Part shown: piece by piece, positions 13,308 through 52,030 of the stretch | Layout of the letters: each line of letters starts with the position of its first letter | How positions within the stretch are numbered: position 1 is the stretch's first letter | Source: Escherichia coli | Lineage (GTDB): Bacteria > Pseudomonadota > Gammaproteobacteria > Enterobacterales > Enterobacteriaceae | Assembly: GCF_002854065.1 (NCBI RefSeq) | Contig: NZ_CP024147.1 | Reading direction: 5' to 3' (one strand) | Length of the DNA: 64,000 nt | Made by a program: the position numbers and the translations under genes | Notes under the pieces: model-generated | What the model was told of the DNA's origin: nothing | The model's input: only the letters and a program-made list of their open reading frames with translations | Databases searched by the model: none

Positions 13308-14912
13308 ATGAAAAAAATTGCTATTGTGGGTGCCGGGCCTACGGGGATCTACACCTTATTCTCGCTTCTACAGCAACAAACTCCACTTTCTATTTCTATC
13401 TTCGAGCAGGCTGGCGAGGCCGGTGTCGGGATGCCATACAGTGATGAGGAAAACTCAAAAATGATGCTGGCAAATATTGCCAGTATTGAAATACCACCGA
13501 TTTATTGTACGTATCTCGAATGGCTACAAAAGCAAGAAGCCAGCCATCTCCAGCGTTATGGCGTTAAAAAAGAAACCTTGCACGATCGTCATTTTTTACC
13601 GCGAATTCTGCTGGGCGAATATTTCCGCGATCAATTTTTACGATTAGTAGACCAGGCACGAAAGCAAAAATTTGCAGTGGCTGTTTATGAATCATGCCAG
13701 GTTACCGATCTGCAAATTACAAATGCTGGCGTCATGCTCGCTACAAATCAGGATTTACCCAGCGAGACGTTTGATTTAGCGGTGATTGCCACGGGTCACG
13801 TCTGGCCTGATGAAGAAGAAGCAACCCGAACGAATTTTCCCAGCCCGTGGTCAGGCCTGCTGGAAGCAAAGGTCGATGCGTGTAACGTGGGTATTATGGG
13901 AACATCCTTGAGCGGACTGGATGCGGCAATGGCAGTGGCTATTCAGCATGGTTCGTTCATTGAAGATGATAAACAACACGTCGTTTTTCACCGCGATAAC
14001 GCAAGTGAAAAGCTAAATATCACGTTGATGTCGCGCACGGGTATTTTACCCGAAGCCGATTTCTATTGCCCTATTCCCTACGAGCCCTTACACATCGTCA
14101 CCGATCAGGCATTAAATGCTGAGATTCAAAAAGGCGAATATGGCCTTTTGGATCGGGTATTTAGATTGATAGTAGAGGAAATCAAGTTTGCTGATCCAGA
14201 CTGGAGCCAACGCATAGCCTTAGAGAGCCTGAATGTCGATTCCTTTGCTCAAGCCTGGTTTGCCGAGCGCAAACAACGCGACCCATTTGACTGGGCAGAA
14301 AAAAATCTCCAAGAAGTCGAACACAATAAACGAGAAAAACATACTGTTCCCTGGCGTTATGTCATTCTGCGCCTGCATGAAGCAGTACAGGAAATTGTTC
14401 CACATCTGAATGAACACGACCATAAACGGTTCAGTAAAGGCCTTGCCCGGGTTTTCATAGATAATTATGCCGCAATCCCTTCAGAGTCTATTCGTCGGCT
14501 GCTGGCCTTACGTGAAGCGGGAATCATTCATATTCTCGCTCTCGGTGAAGACTACAAAATGGAAATTAACGAGTCGCGCACCGTCCTGAAAACGGAAGAC
14601 AACAGCTACTCGTTTGACGTTTTTATTGATGCCCGCGGGCAGCGTCCGCTTAAAGTGAAAGATATTCCTTTCCCTGGACTACGCGAACAATTACAGAAAA
14701 CAGGGGATGAAATCCCTGATGTTGGTGAAGATTATACGTTACAGCAACCCGAAGATATTCGTGGGCGCGTAGCGTTCGGCGCGTTGCCCTGGTTAATGCA
14801 CGACCAGCCTTTCGTTCAGGGACTTACGGCATGTGCAGAAATTGGTGAGGCGATGGCTCGGGCGGTCGTAAAACCTGCATCCCGTGCTCGTCGGCGTCTT
14901 TCGTTTGATTAA
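13308..14912 (+). CDS. ydhS: FAD/NAD(P)-binding protein of unknown function
   Basis: 534-aa ORF with N-terminal dinucleotide-binding motif IAIVGAGPTG. Confidence 0.8.
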   Translation: MKKIAIVGAGPTGIYTLFSLLQQQTPLSISIFEQAGEAGVGMPYSDEENSKMMLANIASIEIPPIYCTYLEWLQKQEASHLQRYGVKKETLHDRHFLPRILLGEYFRDQFLRLVDQARKQKFAVAVYESCQVTDLQITNAGVMLATNQDLPSETFDLAVIATGHVWPDEEEATRTNFPSPWSGLLEAKVDACNVGIMGTSLSGLDAAMAVAIQHGSFIEDDKQHVVFHRDNASEKLNITLMSRTGILPEADFYCPIPYEPLHIVTDQALNAEIQKGEYGLLDRVFRLIVEEIKFADPDWSQRIALESLNVDSFAQAWFAERKQRDPFDWAEKNLQEVEHNKREKHTVPWRYVILRLHEAVQEIVPHLNEHDHKRFSKGLARVFIDNYAAIPSESIRRLLALREAGIIHILALGEDYKMEINESRTVLKTEDNSYSFDVFIDARGQRPLKVKDIPFPGLREQLQKTGDEIPDVGEDYTLQQPEDIRGRVAFGALPWLMHDQPFVQGLTACAEIGEAMARAVVKPASRARRRLSFD

Positions 14913-14923
14913 AGGTAAAGCTA

Positions 14924-15736
14924 TCAGCACTCAACAAACTGATGCTGTTCATTAAGACGATAGCGGACTCCGGCTCGAATATTGTTTTCACCTTCAATGG
15001 CGACGGCGAAACGAACTCTTTCGCCGTCATGATATGCCAGTGCGGCGCTTCCTCCTGGCCCGAGAATAATTGAGTCGACCACGCCCGTGCTCACTACCGT
15101 TGAATTTTCACCGCTGGCAATGATGTGTACATTGTCGCCGCTGTTGACAATTTTGGCGTTTGCGCCAAAGCTGGCGATTTGCACCAGGTCACCATTACTG
15201 GCGACATGACATCGTTCACCCAATGTACAAACGCGTACTCGCATTCCGGTATTCGCAATCCGACTGCTATCTCCAGCGCTGCTTATCCGCGAAGAATTGC
15301 CGGTTACAGCAACCCGTGCGCGCTCACCGGAGCTGCCAATGTGACTGTTAAAGCCGACACTTCCAATCCGCACGCTATAACCCATACTGGCAATTTGTAC
15401 AGCATACCCAGCGGTTGCGATTCTGGCGTTATCCTCACAACAGCCGATGCGAGCATGATCGTCGCTGCGGGCAAACTGACTGCAAAATGCTCTCTCTCCG
15501 GGATCTGTGGCCAGTTTTTGCATAGAGGAAACTTCCTGATGCGCGAAGTTTTCATCCGCCAGCCATTTTTTCCACGCATACTCAACAAGACTCTCCGCCC
15601 AGTCCGTATATCCTTCCTCAATCAGTGCATGATGAATATCAGCATAACTACCGCCGCGCGGGAAATGGCGCAGGAACCAGCGATACATCACCGCTCCGAT
15701 ACGCCATTCTCGCAGGTCTGCTCGTGTAATGATCAT
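14924..15736 (-). CDS. ydhT: Nonapeptide-repeat protein, last gene of the ydhYVWXUT operon
   Basis: 270-aa ORF; residues about 102-218 are at least 13 tandem 9-residue units (YAVQIASMG, YSVRIGSVG, FNSHIGSSG, ...). Confidence 0.8.
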   Translation of the reverse strand: MIITRADLREWRIGAVMYRWFLRHFPRGGSYADIHHALIEEGYTDWAESLVEYAWKKWLADENFAHQEVSSMQKLATDPGERAFCSQFARSDDHARIGCCEDNARIATAGYAVQIASMGYSVRIGSVGFNSHIGSSGERARVAVTGNSSRISSAGDSSRIANTGMRVRVCTLGERCHVASNGDLVQIASFGANAKIVNSGDNVHIIASGENSTVVSTGVVDSIILGPGGSAALAYHDGERVRFAVAIEGENNIRAGVRYRLNEQHQFVEC

Positions 15737-15739
15737 TCG

Positions 15740-16525
15740 TTAGTGCCGGTGATAGCCATCGACCATGCTTTTAAAGGTTTCGTGTGGCGTACGCCCCGTG
15801 GTGCAAAGATAAAGATGACCGAAGATAAAAAAGAGGCTTATAAATGCCAGAGCAAAATGCGCCTGCAATAACCAGTATCTTACGCCAGGAAACACATCTC
15901 CCACGGCTTGCGGATAGAGACACAGCAGCCCCGTCAATAGTAACAACGGCAGCAATCCATACATGACACCAACATAGGCAACCTGCTGTAAGGGATTAAA
16001 TTTAGACTGGGTTGTTGCCGGGAAAGGATGTTCTTCCCCCTGCATAATGCCAAACAAATAAAATCGCGTTTGTTTTGCCGCCCGCTCCAGCCAACCCTGA
16101 CGACGAATGCGATAGTGGTGGCCATTACCCCCAACGGCATTGATCAGAACAAAGCCGTGCCAGCATGCCAGTAACAAAAATCCGCAAACTTCATGCACCG
16201 CAACCAGACTTTTAACCGCAGTTGCGCCCACCAGCGCAAAGTGATTTATCAGCCCACTTGCCAGCAACAATACAAAGAGTAACGCATTCGACCAGTGCCA
16301 TAATCTGACCGCTTTGCTGTAAAGATAAATCTTCTCACCATGATCGGTGGCTGATTTCTTCACGCCACGAGCACGAAGCAAGGCGTGCAGCCCCAGCACC
16401 AACCACATCCCAACCAGCAATACTCCGGCAATGATCAACCACACCGGCCAAAATTCGGGAGTGAACTGTGGCACATAGTTCGCTAACTGGCTCTGAAACT
16501 GTTCAGCATGTTGCGACGGGTTCAT
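15740..16525 (-). CDS. ydhU: PhsC/NrfD-like integral membrane cytochrome b-type subunit
   Basis: 261-aa polytopic ORF with conserved His in helices; 4-nt overlap with ydhX. Confidence 0.8.
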   Translation of the reverse strand: MNPSQHAEQFQSQLANYVPQFTPEFWPVWLIIAGVLLVGMWLVLGLHALLRARGVKKSATDHGEKIYLYSKAVRLWHWSNALLFVLLLASGLINHFALVGATAVKSLVAVHEVCGFLLLACWHGFVLINAVGGNGHHYRIRRQGWLERAAKQTRFYLFGIMQGEEHPFPATTQSKFNPLQQVAYVGVMYGLLPLLLLTGLLCLYPQAVGDVFPGVRYWLLQAHFALAFISLFFIFGHLYLCTTGRTPHETFKSMVDGYHRH

Positions 16526-17190
16526 ACATTTTCCTTTTTAATCAAATGTTGACCGAACCGGCGATACAGATGCGGTTTCCCGGCACCAGGTAGCTGATAT
16601 TGATAGTATTTATTATCCTGCAACCACACCTGAATTTCTGGGCTATCTTCGCGACCAAAGATCAATGCGTGTTCCGGGCAGGCGCTGACGCAAATGGGCG
16701 GAAAGCCTTTTGCCAGTCGGGACTCAGCGCAGAAATCACATTTATCTGCCACTTTAGTGACAGGGTTAAGGTAGCGAACCTGGTACGGACAAGCGCCAAT
16801 GCAATAACTGCAGCCGATGCACTGCGATTTTTCTACCCGCACGATCCCCTGCTCATCACGCCACGACGCCCCTGTCGGGCATACGTCGATGCACGGAGCA
16901 TCTTCGCAGTGCTGACATGACTGGCGAAAAAAGTGATACTGCGTTTCGTTGTCGTTATCGGTGACTGGAATGTGTGCTATCGATAAACGGCTTCCCTGAG
17001 CGGGGACGTGGTTAGTTTTACGGCATGCGCGGGCGCAAATATTACAGCCATTGCACCGTGACTCGTCATGAATCATGGCATACCGAACTTCCTTTTCTTG
17101 CCTCGTGTTCGCTAACAGAGAAGACGCAGAACCAGTAAAAAAGATTACTGTTCCCATCCCCAGAACAAATTTGCGTCGAGTGAAGGACAT
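16522..17190 (-). CDS. ydhX: Tat-exported 4Fe-4S ferredoxin-like subunit
   Basis: 222 aa from the internal Met (MSFTRRKFVLGMGTVIFFTGSASSLLA, twin-arginine signal); multiple CxxCxxCxxxCP clusters. The ORF-track start at 17241 is an unsupported extension. Confidence 0.8.
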   Translation of the reverse strand: MSFTRRKFVLGMGTVIFFTGSASSLLANTRQEKEVRYAMIHDESRCNGCNICARACRKTNHVPAQGSRLSIAHIPVTDNDNETQYHFFRQSCQHCEDAPCIDVCPTGASWRDEQGIVRVEKSQCIGCSYCIGACPYQVRYLNPVTKVADKCDFCAESRLAKGFPPICVSACPEHALIFGREDSPEIQVWLQDNKYYQYQLPGAGKPHLYRRFGQHLIKKENV

Positions 17191-17253: not shown

Positions 17254-17901
17254 TCAGGGGTTCTGAAACTGCTCTACCTCGAACCATTCGCATAAGCCAT
17301 AAGCCTTGCCATAGGTCATAAATCGCTCGCTAAACAAGTACAACACCGCCGTCGATGACTCCACCTGCCGTATATCGGCATATTCAGGTGCAACATCCAT
17401 CGCGGCGATCGCGGCTTCAATCTGCGCTTCCTGGAAGTAATATGGCGCTTGCATCAGCATGGCGACTTTGTAAGGACGAGGATACGTCTGGCACTCAAAA
17501 CGAACGGCGTGTGCAATGGCGCGACAAATGTCCTGCTCCACAACTTGCAAAGACATCGCCGCGTAGTTTTCACTCATGGCCTGCGTTGAGTAATAGTAAT
17601 CATCCTGACTTCCCGTCATACAAGCGATATCCGCGTAGTCTCCGTTCTGCTTAATGCTTTCCAGCAAAACTGACAGTTCCTCTTCTGCAACTGAATAGGG
17701 TGGCGAGAGAAACACGGCGCGCGCCACCAGCTGCCCAGCCACAGAATGCTGGCGAATGAACTCTGCCAGGATTTCAGCCGGTTCTGGTTCGGTTACCGTA
17801 TCAACGGGGTGACGCATCCCCTGCAACCATTGCCGCTTCGCCTCGTCAACTTCGCTGACTTTCGCTAACGGCAATTCATCCTGATGGTTCATCTTACCCA
17901 T
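17254..17901 (-). CDS. ydhW: Operon protein of unknown function (possible maturation/chaperone factor)
   Basis: 215-aa ORF between ydhX and ydhV on the same strand. Confidence 0.75.
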   Translation of the reverse strand: MGKMNHQDELPLAKVSEVDEAKRQWLQGMRHPVDTVTEPEPAEILAEFIRQHSVAGQLVARAVFLSPPYSVAEEELSVLLESIKQNGDYADIACMTGSQDDYYYSTQAMSENYAAMSLQVVEQDICRAIAHAVRFECQTYPRPYKVAMLMQAPYYFQEAQIEAAIAAMDVAPEYADIRQVESSTAVLYLFSERFMTYGKAYGLCEWFEVEQFQNP

Positions 17902-17904
17902 TCC

Positions 17905-20091
<2,187 letters not shown>

Positions 20092-20504
20092 TCACCGCAT
20101 AACACACATTTCGAGGATTTTTTACTTTCGGTATTTACGGTGGCCATCATCCACGGGCATGCCGTAGTACAGGCGCTACAGCCAATACAACGTTTATGAT
20201 CGACGGTAATACAGCCTTCTTTCTGCTGCCAGGTAATCGCACCAATCGGGCAGACGTTCATGCATTGCGGCTCTTTGCATTGACGGCAGGTGTCCGCGGT
20301 ATAGTTGAGATCGCCATACAGGCCGCCGCCAGAGCCAACCCCGTTGTCGCCAAAGAAATAATTGCGATGGATTTTGATACGGGAGAAGAATGTCCCTACT
20401 GAGCCATCGTTGAAGTTGGTACAAGAGATTTCACAGCGGTGGCAACCCGTGCATCGCGCTCGCTGGGTCACCAGCTCCCCTTTGGGTGTATTTATCAACC
20501 CTAC

Positions 20505-20512
20505 TGTGCCGC
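20505..20512. repeat. IS1 target-site duplication, left copy (TGTGCCGC)
   Basis: Identical 8-mer immediately flanks both IS1 ends (20505-20512 and 21281-21288). Confidence 0.85.
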
Positions 20513-20567
20513 GGTGATGCTGCCAACTTACTGATTTAGTGTATGATGGTGTTTTTGAGGTGCTCCA

Positions 20568-20843
20568 GTGGCTTCTGTTTCTATCAGCTGTCCCTCCTGT
20601 TCAGCTACTGACGGGGTGGTGCGTAACGGCAAAAGCACTGCCGGACATCAGCGCTATCTCTGCTCTCACTGCCGTAAAACATGGCAACTGCAGTTCACTT
20701 ACACCGCTTCTCAACCCGGTACGCACCAGAAAATCATTGATATGGCCATGAATGGCGTTGGATGCCGGGCAACCGCCCGCATTATGGGCGTTGGCCTCAA
20801 CACGATTTTCCGCCATTTAAAAAACTCAGGCCGCAGTCGGTAA
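20568..20843 (+). CDS. insA: IS1 InsA (transposition repressor / N-terminal part of InsAB' transposase)
   Basis: 91-aa [46 protein letters not shown]... with zinc-finger-like Cys pairs. Confidence 0.95.
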
Positions 20844-21265
20844 CCTCGCGCATACAGCCGGGCAGTGACGTCATCGTCTGCGCGGAAATGGACGAACAGT
20901 GGGGATACGTCGGGGCTAAATCGCGCCAGCGCTGGCTGTTTTACGCGTATGACAGGCTCCGGAAGACGGTTGTTGCGCACGTATTCGGTGAACGCACTAT
21001 GGCGACGCTGGGGCGTCTTATGAGCCTGCTGTCACCCTTTGACGTGGTGATATGGATGACGGATGGCTGGCCGCTGTATGAATCCCGCCTGAAGGGAAAG
21101 CTGCACGTAATCAGCAAGCGATATACGCAGCGAATTGAGCGGCATAACCTGAATCTGAGGCAGCACCTGGCACGGCTGGGACGGAAGTCGCTGTCGTTCT
21201 CAAAATCGGTGGAGCTGCATGACAAAGTCATCGGGCATTATCTGAACATAAAACACTATCAATAA
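20762..21265 (+). CDS. insB: IS1 InsB (catalytic part of InsAB' transposase, made by -1 frameshift)
   Basis: 167-aa [19 protein letters not shown]...HYLNIKHYQ in the -1 frame relative to insA. Confidence 0.95.
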
Positions 21266-21280
21266 GTTGGAGTCATTACC

Positions 21281-21288
21281 TGTGCCGC
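21281..21288. repeat. IS1 target-site duplication, right copy (TGTGCCGC)
   Basis: Matches 20505-20512 exactly. Confidence 0.85.
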
Positions 21289-21631
21289 TATCAATATCTT
21301 CCTGTTTGCAACCCAAAAGTGACAGTAACGCAGGGGCAATTGTTAGACCAGCAAGGCCTTTTCCTGATATACGCAAGAATTCTAATCGCGTTAAGCCAAT
21401 ATCTAATAGTGGACGATCAACCGGGTTCATTTATTTCGCATCCTCTTCGCAAACACAGTGCTGACAATTCAGCAGCCTGATATTAAGCATTCAACTAATA
21501 CGCTGCTGACTCTGTCCTCAACACCAGATATTTTCCCTAACCCGATAGTGTATGAGAAAAGATTTAACGCCGATAAACTAATCCTTTATGGTTAGGAGAA
21601 AAAATAATGTGGTTATTCTGGGCTCTTAACA

Positions 21632-51262: not shown

Positions 51263-51317
51263 GGTGATGCTGCCAACTTACTGATTTAGTGTATGATGGT
51301 GTTTTTGAGGTGCTCCA

Positions 51318-51593
51318 GTGGCTTCTGTTTCTATCAGCTGTCCCTCCTGTTCAGCTACTGACGGGGTGGTGCGTAACGGCAAAAGCACTGCCGGACATCA
51401 GCGCTATCTCTGCTCTCACTGCCGTAAAACATGGCAACTGCAGTTCACTTACACCGCTTCTCAACCCGGTACGCACCAGAAAATCATTGATATGGCCATG
51501 AATGGCGTTGGATGCCGGGCAACCGCCCGCATTATGGGCGTTGGCCTCAACACGATTTTCCGCCATTTAAAAAACTCAGGCCGCAGTCGGTAA
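51318..51593 (+). CDS. insA: IS1 InsA
   Basis: 91-aa ORF identical to the copy A InsA. Confidence 0.95.
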
Positions 51594-52015
51594 CCTCGCG
51601 CATACAGCCGGGCAGTGACGTCATCGTCTGCGCGGAAATGGACGAACAGTGGGGATACGTCGGGGCTAAATCGCGCCAGCGCTGGCTGTTTTACGCGTAT
51701 GACAGGCTCCGGAAGACGGTTGTTGCGCACGTATTCGGTGAACGCACTATGGCGACGCTGGGGCGTCTTATGAGCCTGCTGTCACCCTTTGACGTGGTGA
51801 TATGGATGACGGATGGCTGGCCGCTGTATGAATCCCGCCTGAAGGGAAAGCTGCACGTAATCAGCAAGCGATATACGCAGCGAATTGAGCGGCATAACCT
51901 GAATCTGAGGCAGCACCTGGCACGGCTGGGACGGAAGTCGCTGTCGTTCTCAAAATCGGTGGAGCTGCATGACAAAGTCATCGGGCATTATCTGAACATA
52001 AAACACTATCAATAA
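51512..52015 (+). CDS. insB: IS1 InsB
   Basis: 167-aa ORF identical to the copy A InsB. Confidence 0.95.
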
Positions 52016-52030
52016 GTTGGAGTCATTACC

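Follow-up and report, generated by a model that had tools for sequence, protein, structure and literature searches.

In the genome of Escherichia coli, the genes ydhS and ydhT converge tail to tail within a 64,000-nucleotide stretch of contig NZ_CP024147.1 (assembly GCF_002854065.1), the whole of which is referred to here as the window. ydhS (13308..14912, plus strand) encodes a 534-residue FAD-NAD(P)-binding protein, as assigned by RefSeq annotation and by a match to Pfam family NAD_binding_9 (E = 7.5e-31), and ends with a TAA codon at 14910-14912. ydhT (14924..15736, minus strand), the final gene of the ydhYVWXUT operon, encodes a 270-residue protein for which a Pfam search returned no family and whose C-terminal peptide QFVEC is kept as far as Citrobacter; its stop is a TGA (14926..14924). 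Between the two stop codons lies only the spacer AGGTAAAGCTA (14913..14923, common to both strands), so that within positions 14880-14960 the junction reads TTCGTTTGAT TAA AGGTAAAGCTA TCA GCACTC. Sequence, open reading frames and script are concordant on these coordinates, and the separation of 11 bp claimed in the initial annotation is confirmed by them as well as by RefSeq, which gives the same gap in K-12 MG1655 (b1668 ydhS, 1747131..1748735, plus strand; b1669 ydhT, 1748747..1749559, minus strand) and in NZ_CP182139.1, where both genes are named and whose strain is identical to ours over window positions 14400-15400. Short as it is, the spacer holds an in-frame back-up stop for either gene: TAA-AGG-TAA for ydhS (second TAA at 14916-14918, kept in four of five Escherichia lineages) and UGA-UAG for ydhT (UAG at 14923..14921 on the minus strand, UGA-UAA in the closest clade). 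We consider this, with good probability, an ordinary, tightly packed convergent junction without a dedicated terminator, whose transcripts overlap and end diffusely inside the opposite gene.

Transcript overlap is nearly unavoidable in such a geometry, because each mRNA includes its own stop codon and avoidance would require both 3' ends to fall within the same 11 nucleotides. Indeed, ydhS-ydhT is listed by ExcludonFinder (NAR 2025, PMC12288877, Table 1) among 165 convergent pairs overlapping in 50% or more of the 58 transcriptomes of MG1655 considered, overlap being defined from RNA-seq coverage, and the 81 bp spanning the junction are identical in the window and in MG1655. The earlier proposal that the ydhYVWXUT transcript reads into ydhS antisense, and vice versa, is thus supported by geometry, by this listing and by the identity of the junction, and mutual read-through is already published for MG1655. 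Of 370 convergent operons in E. coli, 276 have been reported to overlap, by a mean of 286 nucleotides (Conway et al. 2014, mBio, PMC4161252). ydhS-ydhT shows no structural difference from the convergent excludons of these two studies, sharing with them opposite-strand neighbours arranged tail to tail, a very short gap and a reported overlap; in functional terms, where antagonistic expression is the hallmark of an excludon, it is at most a candidate.

It had also been argued that there is no room for a terminator hairpin between the stops. This is correct in that 11 bp are too short for a hairpin plus U-tract, but a terminator is not thereby excluded, because hairpins can lie within coding sequence, and a weak one does overlap the end of ydhT. 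This imperfect, AU/GU-rich hairpin (14921..14963, minus strand, hence read 14963..14921) spans the last ydhT codons, the stop and three spacer bases, and contains 17 pairs, including four G-U wobbles, with two bulges and an AU-rich base; its predicted stability is -12.0 kcal/mol, it is followed by CUUUACCUUUAAU, and its tail, CUUUACCUU, is an interrupted U-tract. The plus-strand counterpart reaches only -7.3 kcal/mol, with the tail GUUCAUUAA. Were the minus-strand stem, together with the U-containing spacer, a real intrinsic terminator, operon transcripts would mostly end in or just past the spacer and overlap ydhS by a few nucleotides. Its stability and the sequence that follows it suit such a role, overlap of terminator hairpins with coding ends is known, and predicted terminators lie within the neighbour's transcription unit in 146 of the 165 convergent excludons (ExcludonFinder, PMC12288877). 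We nevertheless regard this alternative as unlikely, since wobbles, bulges, AU-rich base and interrupted U-tract all detract from it, and since the region folds no more stably than dinucleotide shuffles (81-nucleotide junction, z = +0.23 on the plus and +0.56 on the minus strand), while in the same scan the real terminators of neighbouring junctions score between -14 and -27 kcal/mol. Comparison with other genomes points the same way. The inner pairs of the stem are invariant in six aligned Escherichia junctions because they lie in coding sequence, for the conserved C-terminus QHQFVEC, whereas the outer pairs need the spacer bases UAG; other Escherichia have CGC, CAC or CUC instead, and nothing on the opposite arm restores the pairing. 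Two of these other lineages have a weaker U-rich tail, and E. albertii has none. At best, the stem terminates marginally or protects the 3' end.

Bidirectional intrinsic terminators are reportedly found between convergent genes as GC-rich palindromic hairpins with flanking A- and U-tracts. Those described by Wang et al. (bioRxiv 10.1101/2022.10.23.513370) occupy the same site between convergent stops, and face the same problem, as would a terminator here. Junctions near ydhS-ydhT that carry this type (slyB-slyA, mdtK-ydhQ, lpp-ldtE and fadK-ppsA) have hairpins that score between -15 and -23 kcal/mol on each strand, compared with the asymmetric -12.0 and -7.3 kcal/mol of ydhS-ydhT. A hairpin scan of both strands found no stable GC-rich hairpin between the ydhS and ydhT stops that would be usable from either side, no stem at the junction is followed directly by a U-tract on each strand, and the Escherichia alignment shows no hairpin conserved there through compensatory changes. 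A bidirectional terminator made from coding sequence was accordingly rejected on grounds of low stability, asymmetry and non-conservation.

Searching for terminators inside the opposing coding regions, as had been proposed in the initial annotation, turned up only weak hairpins. The next candidate on the ydhT strand, CAGGGAUUUCAUCCCCUG followed by UUUUCUGU (14701..14718, minus strand), lies inside ydhS in antisense orientation, approximately 205 nucleotides beyond the ydhT stop, with a stability of -6.8 to -7.5 kcal/mol. Of four other Escherichia lineages, three lack one of its G-C pairs and make no compensating change, and matches of this kind are frequent by chance (19 in the region, against 10.8 +/- 4.0 in shuffles), so that an intrinsic terminator at 14718..14701 was ruled out. 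On the plus strand, a weak stem of -8.3 kcal/mol (15515..15547) in the ydhS read-through RNA is followed by UUUUCAUCC. There is thus no convincing intrinsic terminator at or near the ydhS/ydhT junction.

A local comparison puts this result in context. The K-12 annotation gives 14 convergent pairs in the 98 kb from 1.700 to 1.798 Mb, an interval that contains the window. All were considered, and four of them have gaps of at most 11 bp: purR-punR (-4 bp, K-12 1738866-1738869) and ydiE-selO (3 bp, K-12 1789805-1789807), both in the span of the window, ydhK-sodC (0 bp, K-12 1724133/1724134, outside it), and ydhS-ydhT itself. The spacing of ydhS-ydhT is therefore not unusual, and the arrangement is an ordinary one. 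Its three counterparts share with it the narrow gap, the lack of a terminator-like hairpin and a listing as convergent excludons; it differs from them in having the widest gap of the four and in that it closes an FNR-regulated operon of six genes, not one gene alone. The other ten pairs are add-ydgJ (33 bp, hairpins of -18.5/-20.3 kcal/mol), cfa-ribC (39 bp), mdtK-ydhQ (40 bp, -20.3/-18.8 kcal/mol), ydiO-ydiP (42 bp, -27.3 kcal/mol on one strand), gstA-pdxY (43 bp, a weaker hairpin of -10.5 kcal/mol), slyB-slyA (46 bp, -23.4/-21.9 kcal/mol), lhr-grxD (50 bp), fadK-ppsA (56 bp, -16.6/-22.0 kcal/mol), lpp-ldtE (63 bp, -17.7/-15.0 kcal/mol) and sodB-ydhP (161 bp). In the same hairpin scan, pairs with gaps of at least 33 bp mostly have a hairpin, often palindromic, that scores between -14 and -27 kcal/mol on one strand or both, whereas at the four narrow junctions hairpins are absent or weak. 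Of the pairs in this interval, the ExcludonFinder table contains exactly the four narrow ones and none of the ten wider ones, which fits the reasoning that a short gap leaves no room for a terminator. This sorting has some teaching value, most junctions with gaps of 33 bp or more having strong hairpins and those of 11 bp or less having none, the latter being the pairs published as overlapping. The importance of the junction is small, but it illustrates in textbook style how E. coli packs convergent genes with no terminator between them, and why 3' overlaps in antisense are so widespread.

If such a junction indeed lacks a dedicated terminator, a polymerase transcribing ydhS would pass the TAA and continue into ydhT antisense, and one transcribing the FNR-activated ydhY-T operon would pass the TGA and continue into ydhS antisense. 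Ribosomes would leave at the stops, each seconded by the in-frame stop in the spacer, and the read-through RNA would remain untranslated. Rho is said to terminate untranslated or antisense transcription. Here it could load on downstream C-rich, G-poor stretches and cause diffuse termination some 100-700 nucleotides into the opposite gene. Head-on polymerase collisions, which according to Wang et al. (bioRxiv 10.1101/2022.10.23.513370) help to end transcription between convergent genes, may contribute when both genes are active. Weak stems such as 14963..14921 may then halt exonucleases that trim the 3' ends, and complementary 3' tails could pair and be cut by RNase III, with mild mutual interference as a result.

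Base composition, computed by script, is consistent with this scheme. The first ~220 nucleotides of ydhT read-through RNA (14704..14923, minus strand), antisense to the ydhS 3' end and a putative zone of Rho loading and termination, have a C fraction of 0.31-0.34, a G fraction of 0.20-0.29 and a C/G ratio of 1.1-1.6, values that serve as a composition heuristic only, and a 126-nucleotide stretch overlapping this zone (14935..14810, minus strand) folds less well than its shuffles (z = +2.13). For ydhS transcripts the candidate Rho zone comprises C-rich, G-poor stretches at 15193..15652 (plus strand), antisense to ydhT; by the same heuristic, the C/G ratio of this read-through RNA is 1.3-3.0 at ~100-740 nucleotides past the ydhS stop, rising to 2.0 at 15333-15412 and to 3.0 at 15553-15632. 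Untranslated read-through RNA with more C than G past both stops is the expected Rho substrate, as in known systems of Rho-dependent termination, including those of Adams et al. 2021; unlike the Rho regions reported there, ydhS, ydhT and ydhU have no bicyclomycin-sensitive region in the published table. Judging by composition, termination would most likely be Rho-dependent and diffuse inside the opposite gene.

Several observations weigh against this interpretation. The C/G bias just beyond the ydhT stop is only moderate (1.1-1.6), the weak hairpin with a U-containing tail that overlaps this stop in E. coli could terminate a fraction of transcripts, and the ExcludonFinder call depends on a coverage cut-off, the genes concerned being weakly expressed. 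Moreover, ydhS, ydhT and ydhU have no entry in either the Term-seq or the Rho-region table of Adams et al. 2021, both searched in full and both from aerobic growth (LB, M63), and the SMRT-Cappable-seq supplements are likewise without mapped ydhS or ydhT 3' ends. The missing entries in the former probably reflect near-silent expression of these three genes in aerobic culture, and are hence uninformative. The position of termination and its dependence upon Rho are accordingly inferred. Conversely, a 3' end mapped to the spacer would not in itself refute read-through, because exonuclease trimming back to the hairpin could produce one without termination.

The arrangement is well preserved within the species. 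Two RefSeq chromosomes match the 1 kb around the junction at 100% identity, and 5418 of 5426 complete E. coli genomes hold some match to it; a 101-bp query crossing the junction matches 5417 of them, all sampled matches (down to 93% identity) spanning exactly 101 bases. Beyond it, a species-level scan with YdhT recovered ten loci from Escherichia and Citrobacter; typical E. coli, E. fergusonii and Salmonella were not among them, so that absence of the arrangement there cannot be concluded. Convergence of ydhS and ydhT across exactly 11 bp was found in four other Escherichia lineages (two further species, E. whittamii, and one divergent record titled 'E. coli'). Across the five lineages the length of the spacer is constant while its sequence varies at 7 of 11 positions. 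In E. albertii ydhS is not at this position, and ydhT opposes ydhR across 63 bp (locus L006, 4814..4876). In Citrobacter amalonaticus a four-gene amino-acid ABC-transporter operon separates ydhT from ydhS, its last gene ending 4 bp from the ydhT stop (locus L007, 4811..7920), and three other Citrobacter loci have no ydhS within 4 kb of ydhT, the one of these that was directly checked having a different neighbour 59 bp from ydhT. By comparison of these loci, the junction is a lineage-specific outcome of gene gain and loss, whose length has not been hit by an indel and whose sequence drifts.

Two interpretations of the spacer as a conserved element were rejected: a conserved motif such as a protein-binding site, given the 7 of 11 positions that vary among Escherichia lineages, and conservation of length as a sign of selection, indels being rare enough for an unchanged 11 bp to be expected over this divergence. 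Two further observations concern the same region. Genomic SELEX (systematic evolution of ligands by exponential enrichment) placed a binding peak of RcdA, a TetR-type regulator, inside ydhT, between ydhS and ydhU (PMC3535384). A 68-residue ATG open reading frame (14824..15030, minus strand), mechanically called, begins in the 3' part of ydhT in another frame and passes through the spacer into ydhS, to which it is antisense; nothing suggests that it is a gene.

The same comparative data bear on the possibility that tight convergence is a selected regulatory excludon, in which ydhR/ydhS and the anaerobic, FNR-activated ydhY-T operon would be made mutually exclusive through interference at transcription and cutting of the RNA duplex by RNase III. 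ExcludonFinder lists the pair as a convergent excludon, the stops lie 11 bp apart in 5417 of 5426 E. coli genomes, as they do in four other Escherichia lineages, and the two sides plausibly suit opposite oxygen regimes, ydhR and ydhS being putative flavin or oxygen-linked enzymes (Pfam) and the operon being regulated by FNR. This persistence, however, needs no selection over the divergence in question, given a spacer sequence that drifts freely, and does not extend beyond the genus, where C. amalonaticus has its ABC-transporter operon between the genes and other Citrobacter a different neighbour; E. albertii, too, has no ydhS here. Expression of both genes is weak, so that collisions would be rare, and the interruption of ydhY by an insertion sequence in the source strain, described below, suggests a dispensable operon. 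No published data on anticorrelated or mutually exclusive expression, or on RNase III processing, were found for ydhS-ydhT. We therefore hold a selected excludon to be quite unlikely, and its more specific version slightly less likely still, namely an oxygen-linked switch by which anaerobic induction of ydhY-T through FNR sends polymerases and antisense RNA into the ydhS 3' end. If this were true, the pair would be a functional excludon and not a by-product of gene packing, anaerobiosis would silence the flavin- or oxygen-dependent function of ydhR/ydhS, and aerobic transcription of ydhS would damp ydhT. The evolutionary pattern, as read from these sequences, argues for neutral packing over a selected switch.

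The remainder of the operon lies upstream of ydhT on the minus strand, and comprises ydhU (15740..16525), ydhX (16522..17190), ydhW (17254..17901), ydhV (17905..20007) and the first gene, ydhY (20028..21430), as identified from the open reading frames and mapped RefSeq annotations. It is activated by FNR from a site at -42.5 (PMC3688515, citing Partridge et al. 2008). In the source strain, comparison with K-12 shows that ydhY survives as two remnants (20028..20512 and 21281..21430) on either side of a 768-bp IS1 element (20513..21280, plus strand, with insA at 20568..20843 and insB' at 20762..21265), inserted opposite to the orientation of ydhY and flanked by the 9-bp target duplication CTGTGCCGC at 20504-20512 and 21280-21288. 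Neither K-12 nor strain CUWW06, the latter identical to the source strain over window positions 14400-15400, has this insertion, and an IS1 next to the same stretch of ydhY occurs in only 12 of the 5426 complete E. coli genomes, none of them identical. Insertion of IS1 is likely polar. An intact ydhYVWXUT transcript, as assumed in the initial annotation, cannot be made in this strain. The insertion probably lowers the transcription that reaches ydhT, and therefore also the amount of ydhS antisense RNA. For annotating the source strain, the broken ydhY is of more consequence than the junction.

The window is otherwise collinear with K-12 1,733,821-1,796,266, from which it differs by two identical 768-bp copies of IS1. 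The second copy (51263..52030) lies in fadK, is 100% identical to that in ydhY and in the same orientation, and has the target duplication GAAGCTGGC; as direct copies 30 kb apart, the two could bring about a deletion that reaches from ydhY to fadK.

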